A stretch of 46,219 nt of DNA, from sequence record NC_007603.1; one strand, given 5' to 3'. Origin of the DNA: Escherichia phage Rtp. Below the pieces are notes generated by a model. That model worked only from the letters and a program-made list of their open reading frames with translations. It was not told the origin of the DNA and searched no databases. This document shows, in pieces, positions 2,934-37,874 of the stretch (position 1 is the first letter of the stretch; every line of letters starts with the position of its first letter). Both the position numbers and the translations under genes were made by a program.

Positions 2934-3080
2934 ATGATTTACATTCACACTTACTACACAGGTAAGTTTAATAGCGTTAAGCACGTTCGGCTACATGAGA
3001 AGAAGATCGATGCGATTAAGCAACATGAAGTTCTTGGAGGTGTAGTTATTGAGGCAATGAAAACCCAAAACATCAAATAG
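2934..3080 (+). CDS. small ORF (48 aa)
   Basis: ATG 2934 with GAAGG SD; TAG stop at 3078 is shared with the palindrome; below the ORF-track length cutoff. Confidence 0.4.
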   Translation: MIYIHTYYTGKFNSVKHVRLHEKKIDAIKQHEVLGGVVIEAMKTQNIK

Positions 3081-3120
3081 CACGAATTGCTAAAACAGTA
3101 CCGGGGTAATTTGTTATAGT
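3078..3120 (+). promoter_or_regulatory. palindrome-promoter cassette
   Basis: TAGCACGAATTGCTAAAA at 3078; 22-bp spacer; TATAGT 3115-3120 followed by TACCCCATCGACAAC leader. Confidence 0.5.
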
Positions 3121-3151
3121 TACCCCATCGACAACTACCAAGGATTAAGCC

Positions 3152-4892: not shown

Positions 4893-4969
4893 GCCCCGCT
4901 AGCTCAATTGGATAGAGCAACGACCTTCTAAGTCGTAGGTTACTGGTTCGAATCCAGTGCGGAGCGCCA
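4893..4969 (+). tRNA. tRNA-Arg (anticodon UCU)
   Basis: Hand-folded cloverleaf: acceptor GCCCCGC/GCGGAGC (one C-A mismatch), D-arm GCTC-AATTGGATA-GAGC, anticodon arm ACGAC-CTTCTAA-GTCGT, T-arm ACTGG-TTCGAAT-CCAGT, encoded CCA. Confidence 0.7.
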
Positions 4970-5812: not shown

Positions 5813-6319
5813 ATGAGCAAAGCAGCATTAAAGATGGGTGAGGGAAATTTCAAGGCGCTCTACAACAAGAAGTATGGCGACATTGCTATGGTGGCAATCA
5901 ACCGCAAGTACACGCCTGAGGAGGTTTTCGATTTCGCCGTTCGATACTTCTCCTGGGCAGAGAGTGCAGCAATCAAGGCAGCCGAGACAGCGTCATTCCA
6001 GGGCGTAGTAACTGAACACCTCATACACAAGCCTCGAGTGTTCACCTTAACGGGTTTGGCGCTCTTCATGGGTGTTAACATCAATAGATTCGCTCGCTGG
6101 CGTACTGAGGCTGGATACTCTGATGTGATGGAATTCATTGATAACGTAATCTACGAGCAGAAATATCAGCTTGGTGTTGCAGGCATCATTAACTCCACCA
6201 TTGTTGGTAAAGAGTTGGGAATCGACAAGCCGCAGGAGATCACCATTAGCAATAACTCTACGGCTAACGATGTTGATAGCATGAAGGAAGCGCTTGAATC
6301 TGTGATTGGTAAGCTGTAG
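5813..6319 (+). CDS. putative terminase small subunit
   Basis: 168-aa ORF immediately upstream of the large terminase; SD AAGGAGG; extended -10 TGgTATAAT upstream; call by position and size only. Confidence 0.5.
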   Translation: MSKAALKMGEGNFKALYNKKYGDIAMVAINRKYTPEEVFDFAVRYFSWAESAAIKAAETASFQGVVTEHLIHKPRVFTLTGLALFMGVNINRFARWRTEAGYSDVMEFIDNVIYEQKYQLGVAGIINSTIVGKELGIDKPQEITISNNSTANDVDSMKEALESVIGKL

Positions 6320-6364
6320 CACTTTTTGTTAAAAGAAGAGGCCCAATCAATGAGATAATGGGCC
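6317..6364 (+). promoter_or_regulatory. palindrome-promoter cassette (variant TAGCACTTTTTGTTAAAA)
   Basis: TAG shared with the terS stop; 22-bp spacer; GATAAT 6354-6359 inside inverted repeat GGCCCA/TGGGCC. Confidence 0.45.
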
Positions 6365-6387
6365 CAATGAAATAACGAGGTGATGAT

Positions 6388-8856: not shown

Positions 8857-8877
8857 CCACAAAAGCTATGATAAACT

Positions 8878-8899
8878 AGCCCCTACATGGGGCTTTTTT
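8878..8899 (+). terminator. rho-independent terminator
   Basis: AGCCCC-TACAT-GGGGCT hairpin plus T6, directly followed by ATTGGAGAAA SD. Confidence 0.6.
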
Positions 8900-8912
8900 A
8901 TTGGAGAAAAAC

Positions 8913-15206: not shown

Positions 15207-15597
15207 ATTGTCATTAGCAGCAAGGAAGTTCGTCAACGATTTGTTGGTGAATGAATTTCCGGTCAGATATCCAGTTGCGTGGGAGAATGCTGCATTCACT
15301 CCTCCTGCGGATGGATCAATATGGCTTAAGTACGACTACACGGAGGTTGATACTGTAACTTACGGACTAAGCAGGAAGTGCAAATACTACGTTGGCATGG
15401 TGCAGATTTCAGTGTTCTTCAGTCCGGGCACTGGAATTGATAAGCCGAGACAAATAGCTAATCAATTGGCAGAATCTATCGTTGATGGTACAATGCTTGA
15501 CAGCGGGACCATTTATGAGTCTGGAGTTGTTAACCCGGTTATCAAATCCAAGTCTGGGTGGTTTATCCCGGTTCGTTTTTATGTTCGTCTAGACTAA
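15139..15597 (+). CDS. putative tail terminator protein (start uncertain, GTG)
   Basis: ORF track; no in-frame ATG near the 5' end; GTG 15139 overlaps the upstream gene by 68 nt. Confidence 0.4.
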   Translation: MWCKRGLAGISRKRWRRLVVQYELSLAARKFVNDLLVNEFPVRYPVAWENAAFTPPADGSIWLKYDYTEVDTVTYGLSRKCKYYVGMVQISVFFSPGTGIDKPRQIANQLAESIVDGTMLDSGTIYESGVVNPVIKSKSGWFIPVRFYVRLD

Positions 15598-17099: not shown

Positions 17100-17419
17100 A
17101 ACGAGCGGTGTATCTACAGTACCAGTCAGACCCAACCGATGCTGAACTGGAAGCTATTGGGATGCGCCGCTCTGATTACGAAGATGAAGAGCCTGAAGTT
17201 TTACACTTCGACGACAACATGATGAAGGCGTGGGACATTTATTGTTCAATGGCTACACAGTGGAGAGTCGGAGCTAACGGAGCTACAGGCCTAGATTACA
17301 GCGTGCTAAACTTCCTCTTTAGAGTGTATAATGTTTCTGAAGAAGAATTGGTGCTCAGCGATTTACGCATCCTTGAAGCTAAGGCTCTAGAGATGATGGA
17401 TAACCTGAGAAAAAAATAA
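17096..17419 (+). CDS. tail assembly chaperone -1 frameshift extension (GT-like product, in-frame continuation after slip at 17090-17096)
   Basis: -1 frame open from 17096 to 17419; ORF track 17108..17419 has only a GTG start and a weak SD, consistent with expression by frameshift. Confidence 0.5.
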   Translation, partial: LKRAVYLQYQSDPTDAELEAIGMRRSDYEDEEPEVLHFDDNMMKAWDIYCSMATQWRVGANGATGLDYSVLNFLFRVYNVSEEELVLSDLRILEAKALEMMDNLRKK

Positions 17420-17440
17420 CCCGCTTCGGCGGGTTTTCTA
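17419..17440 (+). terminator. rho-independent terminator-like hairpin
   Basis: ACCCGC-TTCG-GCGGGT followed by TTTTCTATT. Confidence 0.45.
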
Positions 17441-17454
17441 TTATGGAGGCTTAG

Positions 17455-20601: not shown

Positions 20602-20605
20602 ACTA

Positions 20606-20627
20606 AGCCCCATTAGGGGCTTTTTTT
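20606..20627 (+). terminator. rho-independent terminator
   Basis: AGCCCC-ATTA-GGGGCT plus T7, followed by ATTGGAGAAA SD (same arrangement as at 8878). Confidence 0.6.
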
Positions 20628-20640
20628 ATTGGAGAAATAT

Positions 20641-21396
20641 ATGTTAAGTCCAAAGTTTGAAAATCAGTTGCAAAGTCTTTTCCCTGGCGAGATTGTGACT
20701 CTAATCCAGGTAGACGGGACGGCGTTTGGCTCTCTCGTTTACAACTTCCACAATGAAAACATTTCATATACACCAGAAGAAATAATGCTGGCCCAAATGA
20801 ATGGCGAGCCACTACCAGAGAAGATAATCACATTTCGCGGAGAAGAGTATGGCCCAAGACCTTTCGGTATCTCTGGTATAAATATGACTTCTGACGGCAA
20901 GGCTAACAAGGTCACGTTGACAGTATCAAACGTAGACCAGAGAATTAGCGCACTTATCCGCACCTACAATGGATTGGTTAAAGCAAAGGTTACTATCTGG
21001 ATTACTACGCGCGATAACATCAATGAGGATGGAAGCATTGCCGATGGTGACTATCGCCGATTCGTTTACTTCATTGAGAGACCAAAGCAAGTTGATTACA
21101 AGACGGCATCATTTGAGCTTAGCAGTCCGATGGATATGGATGGTATCTACATTCCTGCGCGACTTGTTCAGTCTGTTTGCTATTGGGCGTCAAGGGGGTG
21201 GTATCGCAGCGGTAATGGCTGCGACTACGCTGGTAATCGTTATTTTGACAAGGATGACAATCCAGTTAATGACCCCTCCTTAGACTTCTGCGCCGGAACT
21301 GTTAATAGCTGCAAGATTAGATTCGGCGAGAATAACCAGCTTTCATTTGGTGGATGCGCGGCTGCAAGCCTGCAAGCTAAAGCTAATCAATCATAG
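20641..21396 (+). CDS. minor tail protein (lambda L-like)
   Basis: C-terminal cysteine cluster (C..C..C..C) as in gpL Fe-S proteins; ORF track 20629 trimmed to ATG 20641 with GGAG SD. Confidence 0.75.
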   Translation: MLSPKFENQLQSLFPGEIVTLIQVDGTAFGSLVYNFHNENISYTPEEIMLAQMNGEPLPEKIITFRGEEYGPRPFGISGINMTSDGKANKVTLTVSNVDQRISALIRTYNGLVKAKVTIWITTRDNINEDGSIADGDYRRFVYFIERPKQVDYKTASFELSSPMDMDGIYIPARLVQSVCYWASRGWYRSGNGCDYAGNRYFDKDDNPVNDPSLDFCAGTVNSCKIRFGENNQLSFGGCAAASLQAKANQS

Positions 21397-21463: not shown

Positions 21464-21979
21464 ATGAATTGGCATGATTACTTTAGATATGAAGACGGCA
21501 AGTTATACTGGATTAGCTTTCCAAACCCAGAGCAGACAAGGAGCGTAAAGATAGGAGATGTTGCTGGATACAAACACCCTGACAACAAGGGTTACATTAG
21601 GGTTCAAGTTATGGGTAAGATGCTAAGGGTCCATCGCGTGATATGGGAAATGCATAACGGAAAAATACCAGAAGGCATGGAGATTGACCACATAAATGGG
21701 ATTAGATCAGACAACAGAATTGAAAACCTAAGAATTGTTAATGGTCTTGAGAACATGAAAAATAAGGGGATTTATAAAAACAACAAAACTGGATTTGTTG
21801 GGGTTGAGAAAATTAAAGCAAACGGAAAGTACAGGGCAAGCATAAGAGTTAATAAAAAACTTATTTTTCTAGGTGAGTATATTTCAATTGAAGATGCCAT
21901 TGACGCTAGAAAGAAAGCTGAATGTGAATACCTTTTCCATAAGAATCACGGAGTTAGAAATGCTTACACCAAAAGTTAA
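21464..21979 (+). CDS. HNH endonuclease with AP2 domain (homing endonuclease-like), paralog of 6388..6864
   Basis: HRVIWEMHNGKIPEGMEIDHINGIRSDNRIENLRIV motif; inserted between L-like and K-like tail genes. Confidence 0.8.
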   Translation: MNWHDYFRYEDGKLYWISFPNPEQTRSVKIGDVAGYKHPDNKGYIRVQVMGKMLRVHRVIWEMHNGKIPEGMEIDHINGIRSDNRIENLRIVNGLENMKNKGIYKNNKTGFVGVEKIKANGKYRASIRVNKKLIFLGEYISIEDAIDARKKAECEYLFHKNHGVRNAYTKS

Positions 21980-22718
21980 ACTGGAAATCTTCCAGCACGC
22001 AAAAGAAGTTTACCCGCACGAATGTTGCGGGATTGTCACGCAAAAGGGTCGGGCTCAAAAATATCACAGAATCACTAATGCCAGCAAGGATCCAGAAAAC
22101 GAGTTTATCCTTGATTCAAATGAGTATGCTGATGTTCTTTTTGAGTTAGCTCACAATGAATCTATTGTTTACGTGGTTCACTCTCATACGGGTGACGGAG
22201 CGACAACGAGACCTAGCCCAGCAGATATCTGTAGCTGCAATGAATGCGAGATTCCGTATGTTATCGTCAGCATTCCAGAGGGTGACATGAGAATTCTCGA
22301 GCCATCAACCATGCATCTGATTGGTAGGCCATGGGGGCTTGGTAGCTTCGATTGCTGGGAGTTGGTGATGGCGTTTCACAAGAAATACGGCGTCAAACTG
22401 AATGACTATCGAGTCAATTACCCGTGGTGGGAGAAGCGGTACAATGAAAACATATATGACGACAATTGGATTAAGGAAGGATTTGAGCTGGTAAAAACTT
22501 CAGATATTCCTATTGGCTCCATGATTATGATGCAGGTGCAAAGTGAGGTGACAAACCACGCCGGAATCTACATTGGCAATAACAGGTTCATCCACCATCT
22601 CTATGGTAAAATGAGCTCTGTTGATATCTACTCCGATTACTGGCGAGAGCGCACAGTGCGAATCGTTCGCCATAAGGATTTACCAGAGGATGTAATTTAT
22701 GACCCAGAAACTGATTGA
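21960..22718 (+). CDS. tail tip assembly protein (lambda K-like; JAMM/MPN plus NlpC/P60)
   Basis: HSHTGDGATTRPSPAD (JAMM-like) and a C-terminal Cys/His region; ORF track 21873 trimmed to ATG 21960 (GGAG upstream), which overlaps the HNH gene 3' end. Confidence 0.75.
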   Translation: MLTPKVKLEIFQHAKEVYPHECCGIVTQKGRAQKYHRITNASKDPENEFILDSNEYADVLFELAHNESIVYVVHSHTGDGATTRPSPADICSCNECEIPYVIVSIPEGDMRILEPSTMHLIGRPWGLGSFDCWELVMAFHKKYGVKLNDYRVNYPWWEKRYNENIYDDNWIKEGFELVKTSDIPIGSMIMMQVQSEVTNHAGIYIGNNRFIHHLYGKMSSVDIYSDYWRERTVRIVRHKDLPEDVIYDPETD

Positions 22719-23271
22719 TATTAAGTTAGGATTATCACTAGGCCGCAAGTTTGGAAAGATTCACCAGATGGCAGTGAATAGCGTTCCCGAGGCTATGCGA
22801 GCACTATGCTCACAGATTCCAGCATTCAAAGAATTCATGAACAGTCATGTTGGTCAAAATACAAGGTACGCCGTGTTCGTTGATGGCAAAAATGTGAACG
22901 AGCATCGAATCTCTGATTTTAGTGCCGTTCAGGAGATACGCATCTTACCAATCCCTCAAGGCCGCAAGTCTGGAGGGTTGTTTCAGACTATCCTGGGAGC
23001 AGCACTAATCGTTGTTGGTGTTGTTTTTCAGCAATACTACCTTGTTGGGGCTGGCATTTCACTTGCTGCTGGCGGCGTTGCTCAGTTGCTTTCACCTCAA
23101 GCTACCGGGTTGAAAGACCAAAGTAACCAGACAAGTAACAGGGCATCTTACGCATTCGGTTCGGCTGTGAACACTGTAGCTGCTGGTTATCCAGTATGCC
23201 TTCCATATGGATATCGAACGGTTGGAGGTTCGGTATTTAGTGCCGGCAGCTACGCTGAAGACAATGCTTAA
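22699..23271 (+). CDS. tail assembly protein (lambda I-like)
   Basis: 190 aa between K-like and J-like genes; hydrophobic central segment. Confidence 0.65.
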   Translation: MTQKLIDIKLGLSLGRKFGKIHQMAVNSVPEAMRALCSQIPAFKEFMNSHVGQNTRYAVFVDGKNVNEHRISDFSAVQEIRILPIPQGRKSGGLFQTILGAALIVVGVVFQQYYLVGAGISLAAGGVAQLLSPQATGLKDQSNQTSNRASYAFGSAVNTVAAGYPVCLPYGYRTVGGSVFSAGSYAEDNA

Positions 23272-23278
23272 ATATCAT

Positions 23279-23300
23279 ACCCGCCTAGTGCGGGTTTTTT
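23279..23300 (+). terminator. terminator-like hairpin between I-like and J-like genes
   Basis: CCCGC-CTAGT-GCGGG plus T6. Confidence 0.4.
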
Positions 23301-23312
23301 ATTTAGTGTAGA

Positions 23313-26300
23313 ATGGCACAAATGATCAAAACAAACATGAGGCTTTGTGATATGGCTGAAGAGATTAAGATTTATGGTGCCAAGGGTGGTAGCCAAAAGC
23401 AGCATCAACCAGTGGAGCAGGAAGATAACCTAATTTCACTTAACAAGGTTAAGGTTCTTTTGGCGGTTGCTGACGGTGAGGTGGATCCTAACTTCTCATT
23501 GAAGGATTTATACCTTGCTGACGTTCCGGTACAAAATCAGGATGGTAGCTACAACTATGAAGGTGTTCGCGCTGAGTTCCGTGCTGGCACGCAGTATCAG
23601 GACTATATCGCCGGTCTTGACGGTGCTAACTCAGAGATTCAGGCATCCAGAGAAATCAAGAACGATACCCCGTACATCATTGCAGTTAACAATACTCAGC
23701 TTTCAGCAATTCGAGTTAAGCTATTCTGGCCTCGACTGGTTAAGCAAGAAAGCAATGGAGACCTGAACGGAACAACCTGCGAGTATGCAATTGACCTTTC
23801 TGTTAATGGTGGCGCTTACCAGGAATACACTCGCGGAGTTGCTAACGGAAAGACCACTACAGGTTACGACCGAAGCATTCGCGTAAACCTTCCGGCAGAA
23901 TTTGATAGCGCGCTTGTTCGCATCCGTAAGATTACGCCGGATTCAACAAGTAGCACCCTGGTTAACGGTATGCAGATTACAACCTATCAGGAAGTAATTG
24001 ACGCTAAATTCCGCTATCCGCTTACGGCTCTGGTTTACGTTGAGTTTGGTTCTGACTTGTTCCCTAACGGCATCCCAACAATCTCAATCAAGAAGAGATG
24101 GAAGTTGATTCAGGTTCCTACAAACTATAACCCTGAAACCAGAACTTATAGCGGCACATGGAATGGCCTATTCAAGATGGCATGGTCAAACAACCCAGCA
24201 TGGGTTCTTTATGACTTAGTAACAAACCGCCGTTACGGACTTGACCAGCGAGAACTAGGTGTAGAGATTGATAAGTGGGGCCTGTACGAAGCTGCACAAT
24301 TCTGTGACCAGATGGTTCCAGATGGTAAGGGTGGCTTAGAGCCGCGTTACCTTTGCGATATGGTTGTACAGAACAAGGTTGAGGCTTACACGCTAATTCG
24401 TGATATCTGTTCAATCTTTCGCGGCCTGACTTTCTATGACGGCGAAAAGATTGGCATCGTGGTTGATAAGCCTCGCAACCCATCTTACATCTTCACCAAT
24501 GATAACGTTGTAAACGGATTGTTCAGTCGCACATTTGCCAGCGATAAAAGTCTTTACACCACGGCAAACGTTCAGTTTGATGATGTAGAGAACAACTATC
24601 AGCAGGATGTTGAGCCAGTATTTGAGCTTGAGGCTACTCGCAGGTTCGGGTTTAATCCAGTCGACCTTACGGCAATTGGCTGCACTCGCAGAAGTGAAGC
24701 AAACAGACGTGGCAGATGGCTCCTAAAAACCAACCTGAGAAGCGAAACTATCAGCTTCACTACCGGGCTGGAAGGCATGATTCCGATGATTGGCGAGGTA
24801 ATTGCGGTCAATGACGCAGCATGGTCTAGCAACTATCAGTTGAACCTTTCCGGTCGTATTGAATCAGTTCAGGGATTGCAGGTTTTTACACCGTTTAAAG
24901 TTGACGCCGCGCCTGGTGACAGAGTTCTTCTGAATAAGCCTGACGGAAGTCCGGAGGCGAGAACGATCGCAAGCGTTTCTGAAGATGGAAGAACTATAAA
25001 CCTTAACACTGCTTTCAGTTTTGTAGCTCAACCTGATACTGTTTTTGCAATCGATAAAGATAATCTGGCCCTTCAGCAATATGTTGTGACCGGGATTCAA
25101 AAAGCAGATTCTGACAGTTCGGATTCATTTCAGTATACGATTACCGCAGTAGAGTATGACCCGAACAAGTATGACGAGATTGACTACGGCGTTAATATTG
25201 TTGACCGTCCAACTTCAGTCGTAGAGCCTGATAGATTGTCGCCACCTGAGAATTTAACAGTGTCAAGCTACAGCAAGGTTGTTCAAGGATTATCAGTTGA
25301 GACGATGGTTATCGGGTGGGATAAAGCGCCATACGCTAAAACCTACAATGTTCAGTGGAGAAAAGAGAATGGCAACTGGATTAACGTACCAAGAACAGCT
25401 AGCACAGAGGTTGATATCGAAGGTATTTACGCAGGAATTTATGACGTTAGGGTTCGCAGCGTATCAGATACTGAAAACGTGTCTGCCTGGTCTGGTATTG
25501 TAACTGTATCGCTAACTGGCAAGATTGGTCGCCCATCGGCACCTACGGTTATCACGGCGTCAACTGATGAAGTATTTGGTATCCGTGTTAAATGGGGATT
25601 CCCTGAAGGCTCTGGTGATACTGCTTACACTGAGCTTCAGCAGGTTCCAGATAATGGTGATGGTACTTACAATCCTGATAATGCAAGTTTGCTTACGTTG
25701 CTTCCTTATCCTGCCTACGAATACTGGCATACGCCAATTCAGCCAGGTAAGGTGATTTGGTATCGCGCAAGATTGATTGACAGAATCGGAAATACCTCTG
25801 ATTGGTCTAATTTCGCAAGAGGCATGAGTACTGACGACGCCAACATTATCAATGATTTCATCAAGGTTGATATTGAAGGTTCAGAAGGATTCAAATACCT
25901 CGAGCAGAATGCGATTCAAAAGAATCAGGACATTCAGAATCAAGCTGAGGCAATTATCGAGAACGCACTGGCTAATGATGGCGATGTTCGCAGAATGACA
26001 AAGGAGAACGGCAAGCGTAAGGCTGAATATGTTCAGGCTGTGAATCTCATAGCCGATGAAACTCAGGCGCGCGTAGAGGCTCTAACGGCCCTTAAGGCGC
26101 AGATAGATGATGAAGTTGTAGCATCGATTACAGAAGTTCAGACTGCATTAGCCACAGAGACAGAGGCAAGGACTACCGCAGACACGACTCTATCAGCAAG
26201 ACTTGGTGAAAATGAGGCGGCTTTAAACCAGAAGCTGGACGCATTCTCTAATGCCACATCGACTGGTGTGCAGTACGGAATTAGTCTTGGCCTGAAATAC

Positions 26301-26723
26301 AATGGACAGACTTATTCATCCGGTATGAGCATGGAGCTTGTCGGCACTGGTGACAATGTTCGTAGTCAATTCATTTTTGACGCAAACAGATTCGCTATCA
26401 GCAACGGCATTGGTTCTGGTTCCGGTCAGTGGCAACTACCATTCGTTGTCGAGAATGGAAACGTAATCATCCAGAGCGCAGTAATTGGTGATGGCTCAAT
26501 CAGTAACGCGAAGATTGGTAACTTCATTCAGTCCAGCAACTACGTAGCAGGAAGCACAGGCTGGAGGATTGATAAGGATGGTAACGCCGAAATTCGCGGT
26601 AAGCTGTACGCTAACAGTGGGGAGTTCGCTTTTAATGGCACTAATAACACAGTGCAGATTAATGGCAATGGCATTACTGTTAACTTACCAAATGGAGGAA
26701 GAGTTGTTGTAGGTACATTCTAA
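23313..26723 (+). CDS. central tail fiber / host specificity protein (lambda J-like)
   Basis: 1136 aa after M-L-K-I; fibronectin-like central region and C-terminal fiber region; alternative start at ATG 23352. Confidence 0.9.
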   Translation: MAQMIKTNMRLCDMAEEIKIYGAKGGSQKQHQPVEQEDNLISLNKVKVLLAVADGEVDPNFSLKDLYLADVPVQNQDGSYNYEGVRAEFRAGTQYQDYIAGLDGANSEIQASREIKNDTPYIIAVNNTQLSAIRVKLFWPRLVKQESNGDLNGTTCEYAIDLSVNGGAYQEYTRGVANGKTTTGYDRSIRVNLPAEFDSALVRIRKITPDSTSSTLVNGMQITTYQEVIDAKFRYPLTALVYVEFGSDLFPNGIPTISIKKRWKLIQVPTNYNPETRTYSGTWNGLFKMAWSNNPAWVLYDLVTNRRYGLDQRELGVEIDKWGLYEAAQFCDQMVPDGKGGLEPRYLCDMVVQNKVEAYTLIRDICSIFRGLTFYDGEKIGIVVDKPRNPSYIFTNDNVVNGLFSRTFASDKSLYTTANVQFDDVENNYQQDVEPVFELEATRRFGFNPVDLTAIGCTRRSEANRRGRWLLKTNLRSETISFTTGLEGMIPMIGEVIAVNDAAWSSNYQLNLSGRIESVQGLQVFTPFKVDAAPGDRVLLNKPDGSPEARTIASVSEDGRTINLNTAFSFVAQPDTVFAIDKDNLALQQYVVTGIQKADSDSSDSFQYTITAVEYDPNKYDEIDYGVNIVDRPTSVVEPDRLSPPENLTVSSYSKVVQGLSVETMVIGWDKAPYAKTYNVQWRKENGNWINVPRTASTEVDIEGIYAGIYDVRVRSVSDTENVSAWSGIVTVSLTGKIGRPSAPTVITASTDEVFGIRVKWGFPEGSGDTAYTELQQVPDNGDGTYNPDNASLLTLLPYPAYEYWHTPIQPGKVIWYRARLIDRIGNTSDWSNFARGMSTDDANIINDFIKVDIEGSEGFKYLEQNAIQKNQDIQNQAEAIIENALANDGDVRRMTKENGKRKAEYVQAVNLIADETQARVEALTALKAQIDDEVVASITEVQTALATETEARTTADTTLSARLGENEAALNQKLDAFSNATSTGVQYGISLGLKYNGQTYSSGMSMELVGTGDNVRSQFIFDANRFAISNGIGSGSGQWQLPFVVENGNVIIQSAVIGDGSISNAKIGNFIQSSNYVAGSTGWRIDKDGNAEIRGKLYANSGEFAFNGTNNTVQINGNGITVNLPNGGRVVVGTF

Positions 26724-26726
26724 AAC

Positions 26727-26750
26727 AAAAGCCCCGAAAGGGGCTTTATC
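26727..26750. terminator. bidirectional rho-independent terminator
   Basis: AGCCCC-GAAA-GGGGCT hairpin with T-rich runs on both sides, between convergent genes. Confidence 0.6.
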
Positions 26751-26751
26751 T

Positions 26752-27686
26752 TTAATACATATCAGGTAGGTAAGGTAGAGGTATGCCAAGTGTAACGTCT
26801 GGTCTATTTCCAATTCCATATCTAACTATCCTTGTGCCCGTGCCGCTTCTTACGTTACCACCAGTCATTACCACGCCTTTGTTTCTCAACTCCTTGTATG
26901 CAGGTATTGCCCTTGTGTTAAACCCACACCTAAGTATTGGGAAGTATGAGTTTCCTATGCTCTGGTTTGAGCTTGTCAAAGTCACGAACCCAGAAACGAC
27001 AAGAGGCCTCGTTAATGTTGAAAAAGTGCACTGATTGTTCGAGTTGAATATGTTTATTCCAGGCCCTGGGGTTGGCGCAACTTGCTGGAATATTATTAGA
27101 TCAAGAGTTACGCTACCAGGGGTATTCCCAGTATCTTTTGTATTTATATTCGTGCAATATAGAGTTCTGTTACCATCAAACTCAACTGAGACACCTGAGT
27201 TATTCCACTTCCCAAAAGGTATTCCAGCTATTGGCATTGTGTAGCTGTTTGTGAATGATACGGTTCCTGAAAATTTGCAAGTAAGAAGCCTATCCCTTGT
27301 TGTTATAGAGGCAAAATCAGTACTGTCAGCAACGTATATACCTTGCCCAGTTGACGCTCTCAATACCTCTACTACAGTTCCCGAAAATTGCGTAATACGG
27401 TCATTATAAGCATTCTCTCCACCAATAGTTATCGTTCCCTGAGTATTGGTTGCTGAAAATCCATTTATATAATAAATCTCAACCCCCCTATCAAGTTCAA
27501 AACTGTAAGCGCCATTTCTTGGTAGTAAGAATTTTGATGAACCATTGCTACCACTTATTGGGAATGTCTTTGTAAATCCTCCGCTAGAAACGTTGAAGTT
27601 ACCAGCAAAAGACAACCCCCTCATCCCTGAGGTTATCGTCATTGGTTTTCGACCATCATTTAGATCAATGTAGATGCCTTGAGCCA

Positions 27687-27687
<1 letters not shown>
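26752..27687 (-). CDS. putative receptor-binding protein (tail tip), G/S/T/N-rich
   Basis: 311 aa; AAGGAG SD; TAATG overlap with the upstream lipoprotein gene; composition typical of fibre or RBP proteins; located after the J-like gene as expected for T1-like RBP loci (from memory). Confidence 0.45.
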
Positions 27688-28000
<313 letters not shown>

Positions 28001-29627: not shown

Positions 29628-29628
29628 A

Positions 29629-29671
29629 TAGCACGAATCGCTAAAGACAAAATTAAAAGGCGGGGTATGAT
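29629..29671 (+). promoter_or_regulatory. palindrome-promoter cassette
   Basis: TAGCACGAATCGCTAAAG; 22-bp spacer; GGGGTATGATTACCCC containing TATGAT. Confidence 0.5.
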
Positions 29672-29700
29672 TACCCCATCAACAACGAACGAGGTTAAAG

Positions 29701-34807: not shown

Positions 34808-35281
34808 TTACTCTTTAGCTTTTCGTGCTGCCTCATTAGCGGCCTTGATCTTTCTCCATGAACGACACTCTGGTTTGGTTGCTAACTCGGACTCAGTAAC
34901 CACACGCAGCATGTGACGCTTCTTGCACCGTAATGTCAGCGGCTTTCCGTTGCCGTCGAATTGCAGGTCTGGTCGGCAGAATGTAGCGCGAAAACCTTCT
35001 CCATTTCGCTTGTAGTAGTTGTGAGAAAGCTGAGCGCCGCGAGCAGATATCATTCCACGCTTAAACCATTCCTCTACAGCCTGTGGTGTTACCTTTAACT
35101 GCTTTGCGATATTCGCCTTTGTGCCGAAGAAATCAAGAACAATCTCCAGTCGCGCGCGCAACCCTGCCCTTACTTCATCTTTCAAAACGTAGTAACCTGA
35201 AGGTCGTTTTCGTTGTTTTTTGTCTTCAGTGCGGACAGTTCCGTTATTACCGTTGATTGTTCTCTTGTCGACTGTATTCAT
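34808..35281 (-). CDS. putative HTH DNA-binding protein
   Basis: IAKQLKVTPQAVEEWFKRG resembles a Cro/C1-type helix-turn-helix; basic N-terminus. Confidence 0.5.
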   Translation of the reverse strand: MNTVDKRTINGNNGTVRTEDKKQRKRPSGYYVLKDEVRAGLRARLEIVLDFFGTKANIAKQLKVTPQAVEEWFKRGMISARGAQLSHNYYKRNGEGFRATFCRPDLQFDGNGKPLTLRCKKRHMLRVVTESELATKPECRSWRKIKAANEAARKAKE

Positions 35282-37378: not shown

Positions 37379-37798
37379 ATGAATATTACAGACAAAGTTG
37401 ATTACATTGAGTTTTACCCTGGCCCGGTTAAGTCATGCCCTAAAGAGGATGATGAACAAATCTTTTGCTCTGATTGGGTTAAGTATAACTACCCAGAGAT
37501 GGTATTTTTCCACTGCGTGAATGAGGGTAAGAAAACCATTGGTCAAGCAAGAAAAGATCAGGCTAAGGGTCTCCTTAAGGGAGTGTCAGACTGTATGTTT
37601 CTTATACCTGAATCTATCCGAGGCAAATACCCTTTCGGAGCTATAGAGCTAAAGAGAGCAGGAAAAACGCAGGCAAGCCCAGTCAGTGAGGAGCAGAAGG
37701 CTTTCCTTAAAAGCGTAATGGAATCAGGTGGTTTTTCCGCAGTTGCCTACGGCAGGGAAGGGTTCCTTGCAGCATTCAAAGAAATGATTTCAAAATAG
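37379..37798 (+). CDS. VRR-NUC-like nuclease
   Basis: 139 aa; SD...IELK pattern resembling a PD-(D/E)XK / VRR-NUC core; immediately follows the helicase. Confidence 0.45.
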   Translation: MNITDKVDYIEFYPGPVKSCPKEDDEQIFCSDWVKYNYPEMVFFHCVNEGKKTIGQARKDQAKGLLKGVSDCMFLIPESIRGKYPFGAIELKRAGKTQASPVSEEQKAFLKSVMESGGFSAVAYGREGFLAAFKEMISK

Positions 37799-37838
37799 CA
37801 CTAATTGCTAAAGGCGATTTTAAAAGATGGGGTATAGT
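37796..37838 (+). promoter_or_regulatory. palindrome-promoter cassette
   Basis: TAGCACTAATTGCTAAAG shares TAG with the upstream stop; 22-bp spacer; GGGGTATAGTTACCCC. Confidence 0.5.
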
Positions 37839-37874
37839 TACCCCATCGAAACGAAACGAAGAGAGAGAAACAAA

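Follow-up and report, generated by a model that had tools for sequence, protein, structure and literature searches.

A hairpin followed by a run of T residues separates the I-like and J-like tail tip genes of Escherichia phage Rtp. Does the late rightward transcript end at this point and, if so, how is the J gene behind it expressed? The window, i.e., the whole stretch of DNA analysed here, is the complete Rtp genome of 46,219 bp. Rtp is a T1-like phage of the Drexlerviridae; close relatives are T1-like Drexlerviridae with 88–94% identity, and one IMG/VR contig is 100% identical to it. According to the Pfam matches, the gene order in Rtp is tape measure, M, L, HNH endonuclease, K, I, J. Our preferred reading, with a probability of about 0.6, is that the I/J element acts as a moderate intrinsic terminator on the late rightward transcript and that a promoter-like box behind it restarts the transcription of J.

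The junction between the I and J genes of Rtp

The features of the junction are as follows.

22699..23271 (+), I-like tail assembly gene, 190 aa (Pfam Lambda_tail_I, E = 2.7e-9; exact match to YP_398986.1)
23279..23295 (+), terminator-type hairpin with conserved orthologues, ACCCGC / loop CTAGT / GCGGGT, 6 pairs, 5 of them G-C
23286..23291 (+), TAGTGC at the expected −35 position (17-nt spacer), within the hairpin loop and 3′ arm, 2/6 match
23295..23304 (+), T-run TTTTTTATTT, with T6 at 23295–23300 and then ATTT; the first T can close the stem
23309..23314 (+), −10-like box TAGAAT with TG ahead of it; T, A, A and T are invariant in 11 lineages, and a BPROM promoter is recorded in SU57
23313..23331 (+), degenerate copy of the DR repeat (ATAGCACnnnTTGnTAAAA, 4 mismatches), at the position of DR8 of phage TLS
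23339..23342 (+), Shine-Dalgarno sequence GAGG of J, 9 nt before the ATG at 23352; the homologous stretch of SU57 is annotated as a ribosome-binding site
23352..26723 (+), J-like central tail fibre / tip attachment gene, 1123 aa (Pfam FNIII-A_GpJ, Phage-tail_3 and Phage_Tail_Tip)

The I-like gene is the last of the L-(HNH)-K-I block and lies upstream of the hairpin; its stop codon, TAA, ends at 23271. The start of J has been placed at several positions. The Rtp record (YP_398987.1, an exact match of the long J ORF) begins the gene at 23313 (1136 aa), which is the start of the longest J ORF and falls within the conserved box, and other gene callers chose 23337 (1128 aa). The start used by the relatives is the ATG at 23352, with the conserved N-terminus MAEEIKIY (1123 aa, as in BEK6). 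The 13 codons at 23313–23351 are not conserved as coding sequence, being interrupted by a stop in one relative (L023) and carrying non-synonymous substitutions in others; therefore, the true non-coding I/J gap measures 80 nt. Comparison of the sequences thus indicates that J probably starts at 23352 and that the start in the record lies inside a regulatory box. For the engineering of J to alter host range, the block 23279–23351 is best kept whole.

The initial annotation had described a hairpin CCCGC-CTAGT-GCGGG followed by T6 between the I-like stop and the J-like start, and the sequence is exactly so. The arms are A-CCCGC (23279–23284) and GCGGG-T (23290–23295), around the loop CTAGT (23285–23289). 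The hairpin starts 8 nt past the I stop codon and ends 52 nt short of the conserved J start. It has the features of an intrinsic terminator: a G+C-rich stem of 6 pairs (at least 5 are expected) with a loop of 5 nt (expected range 3–8 nt), a U-rich tract directly 3′ of the stem (TTTTTTATTT begins at the last stem position), a location past a stop codon in non-coding sequence of the transcribed strand, and pairing that is kept by compensatory change among the orthologous stems, of which there are at least six different sequences. The T-run is found on the + strand only, and the reverse strand is without one at the hairpin.

A consensus scan lists the site as terminator-like on the + strand, with 6 pairs (5 G-C) and a 5-nt loop; terminator-like sites in the scanned region numbered 29, as against 15.8 ± 4.2 in shuffles. 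The 53-nt context folds with −15.4 kcal/mol (z = −3.2), a stability equalled by 1 of 200 shuffles, and the hairpin alone with −9.2 kcal/mol. On a d'Aubenton-Carafa-type score, the hairpin reaches approximately +20, a middling value for the window, which has 13 canonical sites. As the stem is short (6 pairs, −9.2 kcal/mol) and the loop has 5 nt, termination efficiency could be low.

A long-range alternative fold of the 93-nt gap, which would hide the J ribosome-binding site (−23.5 kcal/mol in Rtp), was also considered; it was dropped because it is not conserved in Rogunavirinae and because transcription reaches its downstream partner too late for an effect on termination. The sequence TGTANAATG is not significantly enriched (5 sites vs. 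2.16 expected, matched by 6 of 100 shuffles). The Rfam search returned no known RNA family at the I/J site, its sole match being a tRNA; this single tRNA gene is located in the early region at 4893–4966 (+) (RF00005, 65 bits).

The I/J terminator is already known as a prediction. In the T1 record (NC_005833), a rho-independent terminator is annotated at the orthologous site, at 24972–24994 between genes 34 and 33, and the AHS24, Sazh and Motto annotations have one as well; in TLS, this site is terminator T49, with the direct repeat DR8 just downstream (PMC11447400, Table S1). The terminator proposed in the initial annotation is thus borne out as a genuine terminator-type hairpin on the sense strand, conserved family-wide. 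The hairpin is an ordinary rather than a surprising signal, since it is annotated at the same spot in T1 and relatives and is always followed by a small promoter-like box. What is gained here is confirmation of the I/J junction of T1-like phages as a selected transcription signal, an annotation that is years old in T1; what comparison adds is the invariant box, the insertion of genes solely upstream of the hairpin, and sister terminators with no promoter behind them.

Conservation of the hairpin and of the box

The I/J gap was taken from 70 loci and eight annotated phage records. A hairpin with a T-run lies directly upstream of J in all 12 Drexlerviridae lineages sampled: the Rtp-like phages, Rogunavirinae, two IMG/VR lineages, Henuseptimavirus, Tlsvirus, T1, Erwinia phage Snitter, Kyungwonvirus SG01, Motto, Webervirus and Warwickvirus. 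The stems differ and yet remain paired, namely CCCGC/GCGGG, CCAGC/GCTGG (a double compensatory change), CCCCGC/GCGGGG, GGCCGCA/TGCGGCC, GCCCCG/CGGGGC and GCCTGGGGGC/GCCTCCGGGC. In the MAFFT alignment of 11 lineages (A1, 52% mean column identity), the stems were out of register, and hairpins were called sequence by sequence in place of formal pair counting; its invariant positions are the GG of the 3′ arm, the T-run and the T-A-n-A-.-T of the box. This conservation at the orthologous site rules out a chance origin of the hairpin. Webervirus FZ10 has a strong stem with only T4. For most Drexlerviridae, it is not only the structure but also the sequence of the stem core that is conserved, which could reflect a constraint other than termination.

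Outside the family, two distant J-encoding groups (L033 and L074) have unrelated stems followed by T6–7 at the I/J junction, and some other distant groups (L062, L064, L066, L068 and L070) have no I/J gap at all; therefore, the hairpin is widespread but not universal. The distant hairpins, those of lambda and of the L033 and L074 groups, are not followed by the box.

The −10-like box matches TATAAT at 5–6 of 6 positions in 14 sites (5/6 for TAGAAT of Rtp), and its T1, A2, A4 and T6 are invariant in 11 lineages. In these 14 sites it lies 10–16 nt from the start of the T-run and 28–45 nt ahead of the J ATG, a slot in which such a box would occur by chance with a probability of approximately 0.06 per lineage. 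The −35 position reads TTGCGC (3/6) in T1, the TLS-like phages, Snitter and Warwickvirus. A sigma-70 promoter is expected to have TTGACA at 17 ± 1 nt or an extended −10; the best relatives reach 3/6, and the TG of Rtp lies at −14/−13 rather than at the extended −10 positions −15/−14, the canonical TGn being found only in Henu7. The consensus promoter scan listed no promoter at the I/J box, whereas the SU57 record carries a BPROM promoter over the homologous sequence. The −35 region is weak throughout (2–3/6), so that promoter activity appears especially uncertain in Rtp. Nevertheless, the box and the hairpin together suggest a terminator-then-promoter unit in which the −35 position lies inside the hairpin. 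Counts of the pattern TTGCGY-N15-18-TANAAT (one site in Rtp and two in T1) were too small to interpret.

Three independent gene insertions have occurred at the junction, each of them between the I stop codon and the hairpin, and the hairpin and the box still adjoin J in every case.

I stop–hairpin interval of IME253, Rao1 and Sd1 (L006, L002 and L007): HNH gene of the Rtp/Rogunavirinae type
I stop–hairpin interval of Warwickvirus (L082 and L083): a different HNH gene, with its own DR-type promoter (see below)
I stop–hairpin interval of the L074 group: an unrelated gene

The I/J gap is a hot spot for genes of free-standing HNH homing endonucleases, of which ityhuna retains only a remnant. Rtp itself has no HNH gene at this junction; its HNH gene lies at 21464–21979, between L and K.

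Other putative promoters and terminators of Rtp

A 19-nt repeat, ATAGCACnnnTTGnTAAAA, which is the "DR" of the TLS paper, occurs in 20 copies in the Rtp genome, as compared to 2.2 expected.

1367, 2359, 3077, 3459, 4027, 6316, 8425, 16303, 21393, 29628, 33762, 35294, 37795, 38478 and 40395 (+), DR copies
28001, 43850, 44966, 45919 and 46160 (−), DR copies

A −10-like hexamer is found exactly 19 nt past DR in 17 of the 20 Rtp copies and in 16 of 24 in T1 (background 0.02 per position), and the hexamers so spaced are followed by a conserved leader, TACCCCATCGAAAC..GAGG-ATG. The repeat contains a dyad, TAGCA-N5-TGCTA, centred at about −42, a position which we take to be that of a class II activator site; the common variant TGTTA pairs only as G.U. 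DR would thus seem to serve a phage-specific class of promoters as their upstream element. The dyad might be bound by the 156-aa protein of the ORF at 34808–35281 (−), a homologue of the T1 "transcriptional regulator" whose P22_Cro-like helix-turn-helix match is weak (E = 4e-6, below the Pfam cut-off).

At some DR-type promoters, the −10 hexamer sits in a perfect inverted repeat of 6–10 bp and variable sequence, e.g., GATGGGGTA-tagt-TACCCCATC.

3077–3140, 6316–6380, 29628–29690 and 37795–37860 of Rtp: DR-type promoters with an inverted repeat
3535, 4344, 4864 and 40308 of T1 (L008): DR-type promoters with an inverted repeat

The mean number of pairs at DR-type promoters is 5.6 vs. 3.4 in shuffles for T1 and 4.2 vs. 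3.3 for Rtp, and some of these inverted repeats carry terminator annotation in T1. The I/J box was not found within such a repeat (mean of 3.83 pairs vs. 3.90 in shuffles).

The I/J box is not preceded by a DR that ends 19 nt upstream. It is not of the DR type, because the hairpin fills the place that DR would occupy and the sole DR-like sequence of the gap comes after the box; T1, Sazh and Snitter carry AAATAGCACAAAAGG where Rtp has this degenerate copy. Of the HNH genes, the one in Rtp is preceded by the DR at 21393 with TATCCT 19 nt downstream, and the Warwickvirus cassette shows the same DR-type arrangement (DR, 19 nt, TACAAT); at least some HNH cassettes appear to bring their own DR-type promoter.

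The window contains approximately 12 intergenic hairpins with a T-run on the sense strand. Almost all of the strong sites are intergenic sense-strand sites, found downstream of the capsid, major tail and J genes, upstream of the tape-measure gene, and at the M/L and I/J junctions. Three sister sites are of particular relevance.

8872–8900, hairpin and T-run before the portal gene, hairpin end at 8894
17418–17454, hairpin and T-run before the tape-measure gene, hairpin end at 17434
20605–20640, hairpin and T-run before L, hairpin end at 20621

Fewer than 25 nt separate these hairpins from the starts of the portal, tape-measure and L genes, and this space holds a Shine-Dalgarno sequence alone and no promoter. 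Since essential genes are located behind promoterless terminators, read-through must occur; judging from this arrangement, the hairpins of the class must be leaky or antiterminated, and a mechanism of antitermination may act at such sites. Between the convergent J and DUF6453 (26752–27696, −) genes, a further hairpin, AAAGCCCC-GAAA-GGGGCTTT (26728–26747), appears to serve both genes as a two-way terminator; the better of its T-runs is that of the − strand.

These sites bear on the role that the initial annotation had proposed for the I/J hairpin. That it could be a partial attenuator is plausible, since the sister hairpins cannot be fully efficient. The box suggests that J has a start signal of its own; the presence of this box after the T-run (14 nt from its start in Rtp) across Drexlerviridae lineages suggests that J is not simply fed by attenuated read-through. 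Nothing supports the further proposal that the terminator sets the stoichiometry of J, and no reason is evident why J should be made in smaller amounts than K and I. In lambda, the low copy number at which J is required is about that of the other tip proteins. An argument from stoichiometry would fit the terminator after the major tail gene.

Proposed termination and restart, alternatives and known systems

From the observed structure and position of the hairpin, its conservation with compensatory stem changes, the invariance of the box and the linkage of both to J, we infer that termination really takes place at the hairpin, which is likely, that it is of moderate efficiency, and that the box has promoter activity, for which the odds in Rtp seem to fall a little below even. 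Host RNA polymerase transcribing L-(HNH)-K-I would make the 6-bp G+C-rich hairpin and then U6AUUU; some polymerases would release at this point, leaving hairpin-protected 3′ ends near 23298–23302, and the remainder would read through. The conserved −10-like box just behind, with its −35 region in the loop and 3′ arm of the hairpin and the T-run as the spacer, would (re)start transcription approximately 30 nt upstream of the J start codon, at a predicted position of about 23321. The junction would thus form a compact terminator-then-promoter border between two transcription modules, the "transcriptons" proposed for T1. The searchable literature yielded no 3′- or 5′-end map and no transcriptome of a Drexlerviridae phage (in the one candidate paper, the RNA-seq concerned a T5-like phage). 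For the first transcript-end mapping in the Drexlerviridae, our reading predicts that 3′ ends will be found near 23300 and a 5′ end near 23321.

A stricter version of this reading, in which hairpin, T-run and box overlap obligatorily as one "stop-and-restart" cassette throughout the Drexlerviridae, with a dedicated J promoter that overlaps the terminator, is unlikely, if still worth considering. If it were true, J, the host-range gene, would carry insulated expression signals of its own wherever it moved, and a polymerase released at the terminator might re-initiate locally.

The hairpin could instead mainly stabilise the 3′ end of the L-K-I mRNA or, once the RNA has been cleaved, block 3′-to-5′ exonucleases, while terminating little, with J expressed from read-through RNA. 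The hairpin that lambda has at the same junction is followed by an interrupted T-run, TTTTGTCATTT, and has a negative terminator score, and lambda late transcription is generally known to be Q-antiterminated, so that termination is not the main role there. The strong stem of Webervirus FZ10 with its T4 and the necessary read-through at the sister hairpins point the same way. However, a stabiliser has no need of a T-run, which is nevertheless invariant in nearly all Drexlerviridae lineages, and the conserved box would be left without explanation; we consider this alternative improbable.

Slightly more improbable is that the block is primarily a J promoter, with the hairpin DNA and the T-run serving as upstream and spacer elements and termination being incidental. 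This would account for the conservation of the stem at the level of sequence, for the constant spacing between the stem and the invariant −10 positions, and for the TTG in the loop at the −35 position in six lineages; the hairpin and the box also remain next to J despite three insertions, and T1 has a second copy of the hairpin with a TAGAAT box at the M/L junction. Nevertheless, SG01, Motto, FZ10 and Warwickvirus have unrelated stems that still pair, and this replacement of stems with retention of pairing indicates that it is the RNA structure, rather than a recognition sequence in the DNA, that is selected. Moreover, the −35 matches are limited to 2–3 of 6, and the hairpin occurs without the box in distant phages.

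It is very improbable that the junction is a module boundary without a transcriptional role, i.e., a recombination linker and/or a homing-endonuclease target for the exchange of J host-range modules. HNH genes are inserted at I/J in several lineages, conservation is higher in the intergenic core than in the adjacent I gene, and the identities of I and J are uncoupled in some loci (e.g., in L046, I has 49% identity vs. approximately 34% in its group, with equal J identity). However, this alternative leaves the compensatory stems, the T-run, the sense-strand specificity and the key −10 match unexplained, and it is compatible with the terminator-and-restart reading rather than exclusive of it.

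The least probable alternative, in which the box is conserved as the start codon (TAnAATG) of a mini upstream ORF that couples translation to J, was rejected as probably fortuitous: 10 of 12 lineages have an ATG overlapping the box, from which a reading frame of 7–12 codons runs to, or nearly to, the J ribosome-binding site (T1 MSPPINSTKR*, Snitter MALPLNSTKG*, PHB07 MAARLNSTKG*; in frame with J in Rtp), but the 14 nt upstream lack a Shine-Dalgarno sequence, FZ10 has no ATG and Motto a shifted one while both retain T-A-n-A-n-T, a start codon would not explain the invariant upstream T, A and A, and the conserved peptide tail stems from a DR-like DNA motif that is conserved elsewhere outside ORFs.

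The terminator-and-restart reading may be compared with what is known from other systems. T1 shares with Rtp the orthologous I/J position, the stem core CCCGC/GCGGG, the T-run and the membership of a set of terminators that divide up the late region, and its T-run is followed by CTG-TATAAT. It differs from Rtp in the loop (CTTGC, giving TTGCGC at −35, vs. CTAGT, giving TAGTGC), in the length of the T-run (T8 vs. T6) and in the box (TATAAT vs. TAGAAT). The T1 genome (L008) has two near-identical copies of the hairpin and box, at 22793–22827 (M/L) and 24972–25006 (I/J), of the form cccgccttgcgcggg-T7/8-..CTG-TAGAAT or TATAAT. Rtp has no copy at M/L, where its hairpin is a different one, AAGCCCC-ATTA-GGGGCTT, without a box.

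In the T1 late region, modules have been described as flanked by terminators and each equipped with its own promoter ("transcriptons"), an organization that was not confirmed in TLS under stricter promoter criteria (PMC11447400). TLS resembles Rtp in the placement of T49 (cccgcggttgcgcgggttttt, dG −8.5) at the junction of the I-like and J-like genes, closely followed by DR8 (PMC11447400). The same paper lists no promoter there and leaves the function of DR open, whereas in our comparison the box between T49 and DR8 is family-invariant.

Lambda resembles Rtp in having a G+C-rich hairpin, AAACCGCC-TGCG-GGCGGTTT, at the I-J junction. It is unlike Rtp in its interrupted T-run, in the absence of a −10-like box, and in the J ribosome-binding site that follows directly; at 15445–15504 of the lambda genome (L081, NC_001416), the hairpin is followed by TGTCATTT between I and J. 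If internal promoters are needed only where terminators really act, the box-less hairpin of lambda would fit. Lambda late RNA is a single transcript made by a polymerase that Q renders resistant to terminators, and an internal J promoter is therefore not needed there. To our knowledge, no function has been described for the lambda hairpin.

The E. coli rplJL-rpoBC attenuator is a partial terminator within an operon that tunes downstream expression. It resembles the role proposed in the initial annotation in being a leaky intrinsic terminator between co-transcribed genes; the terminator of Rtp, in contrast, has a conserved promoter-like box behind it.
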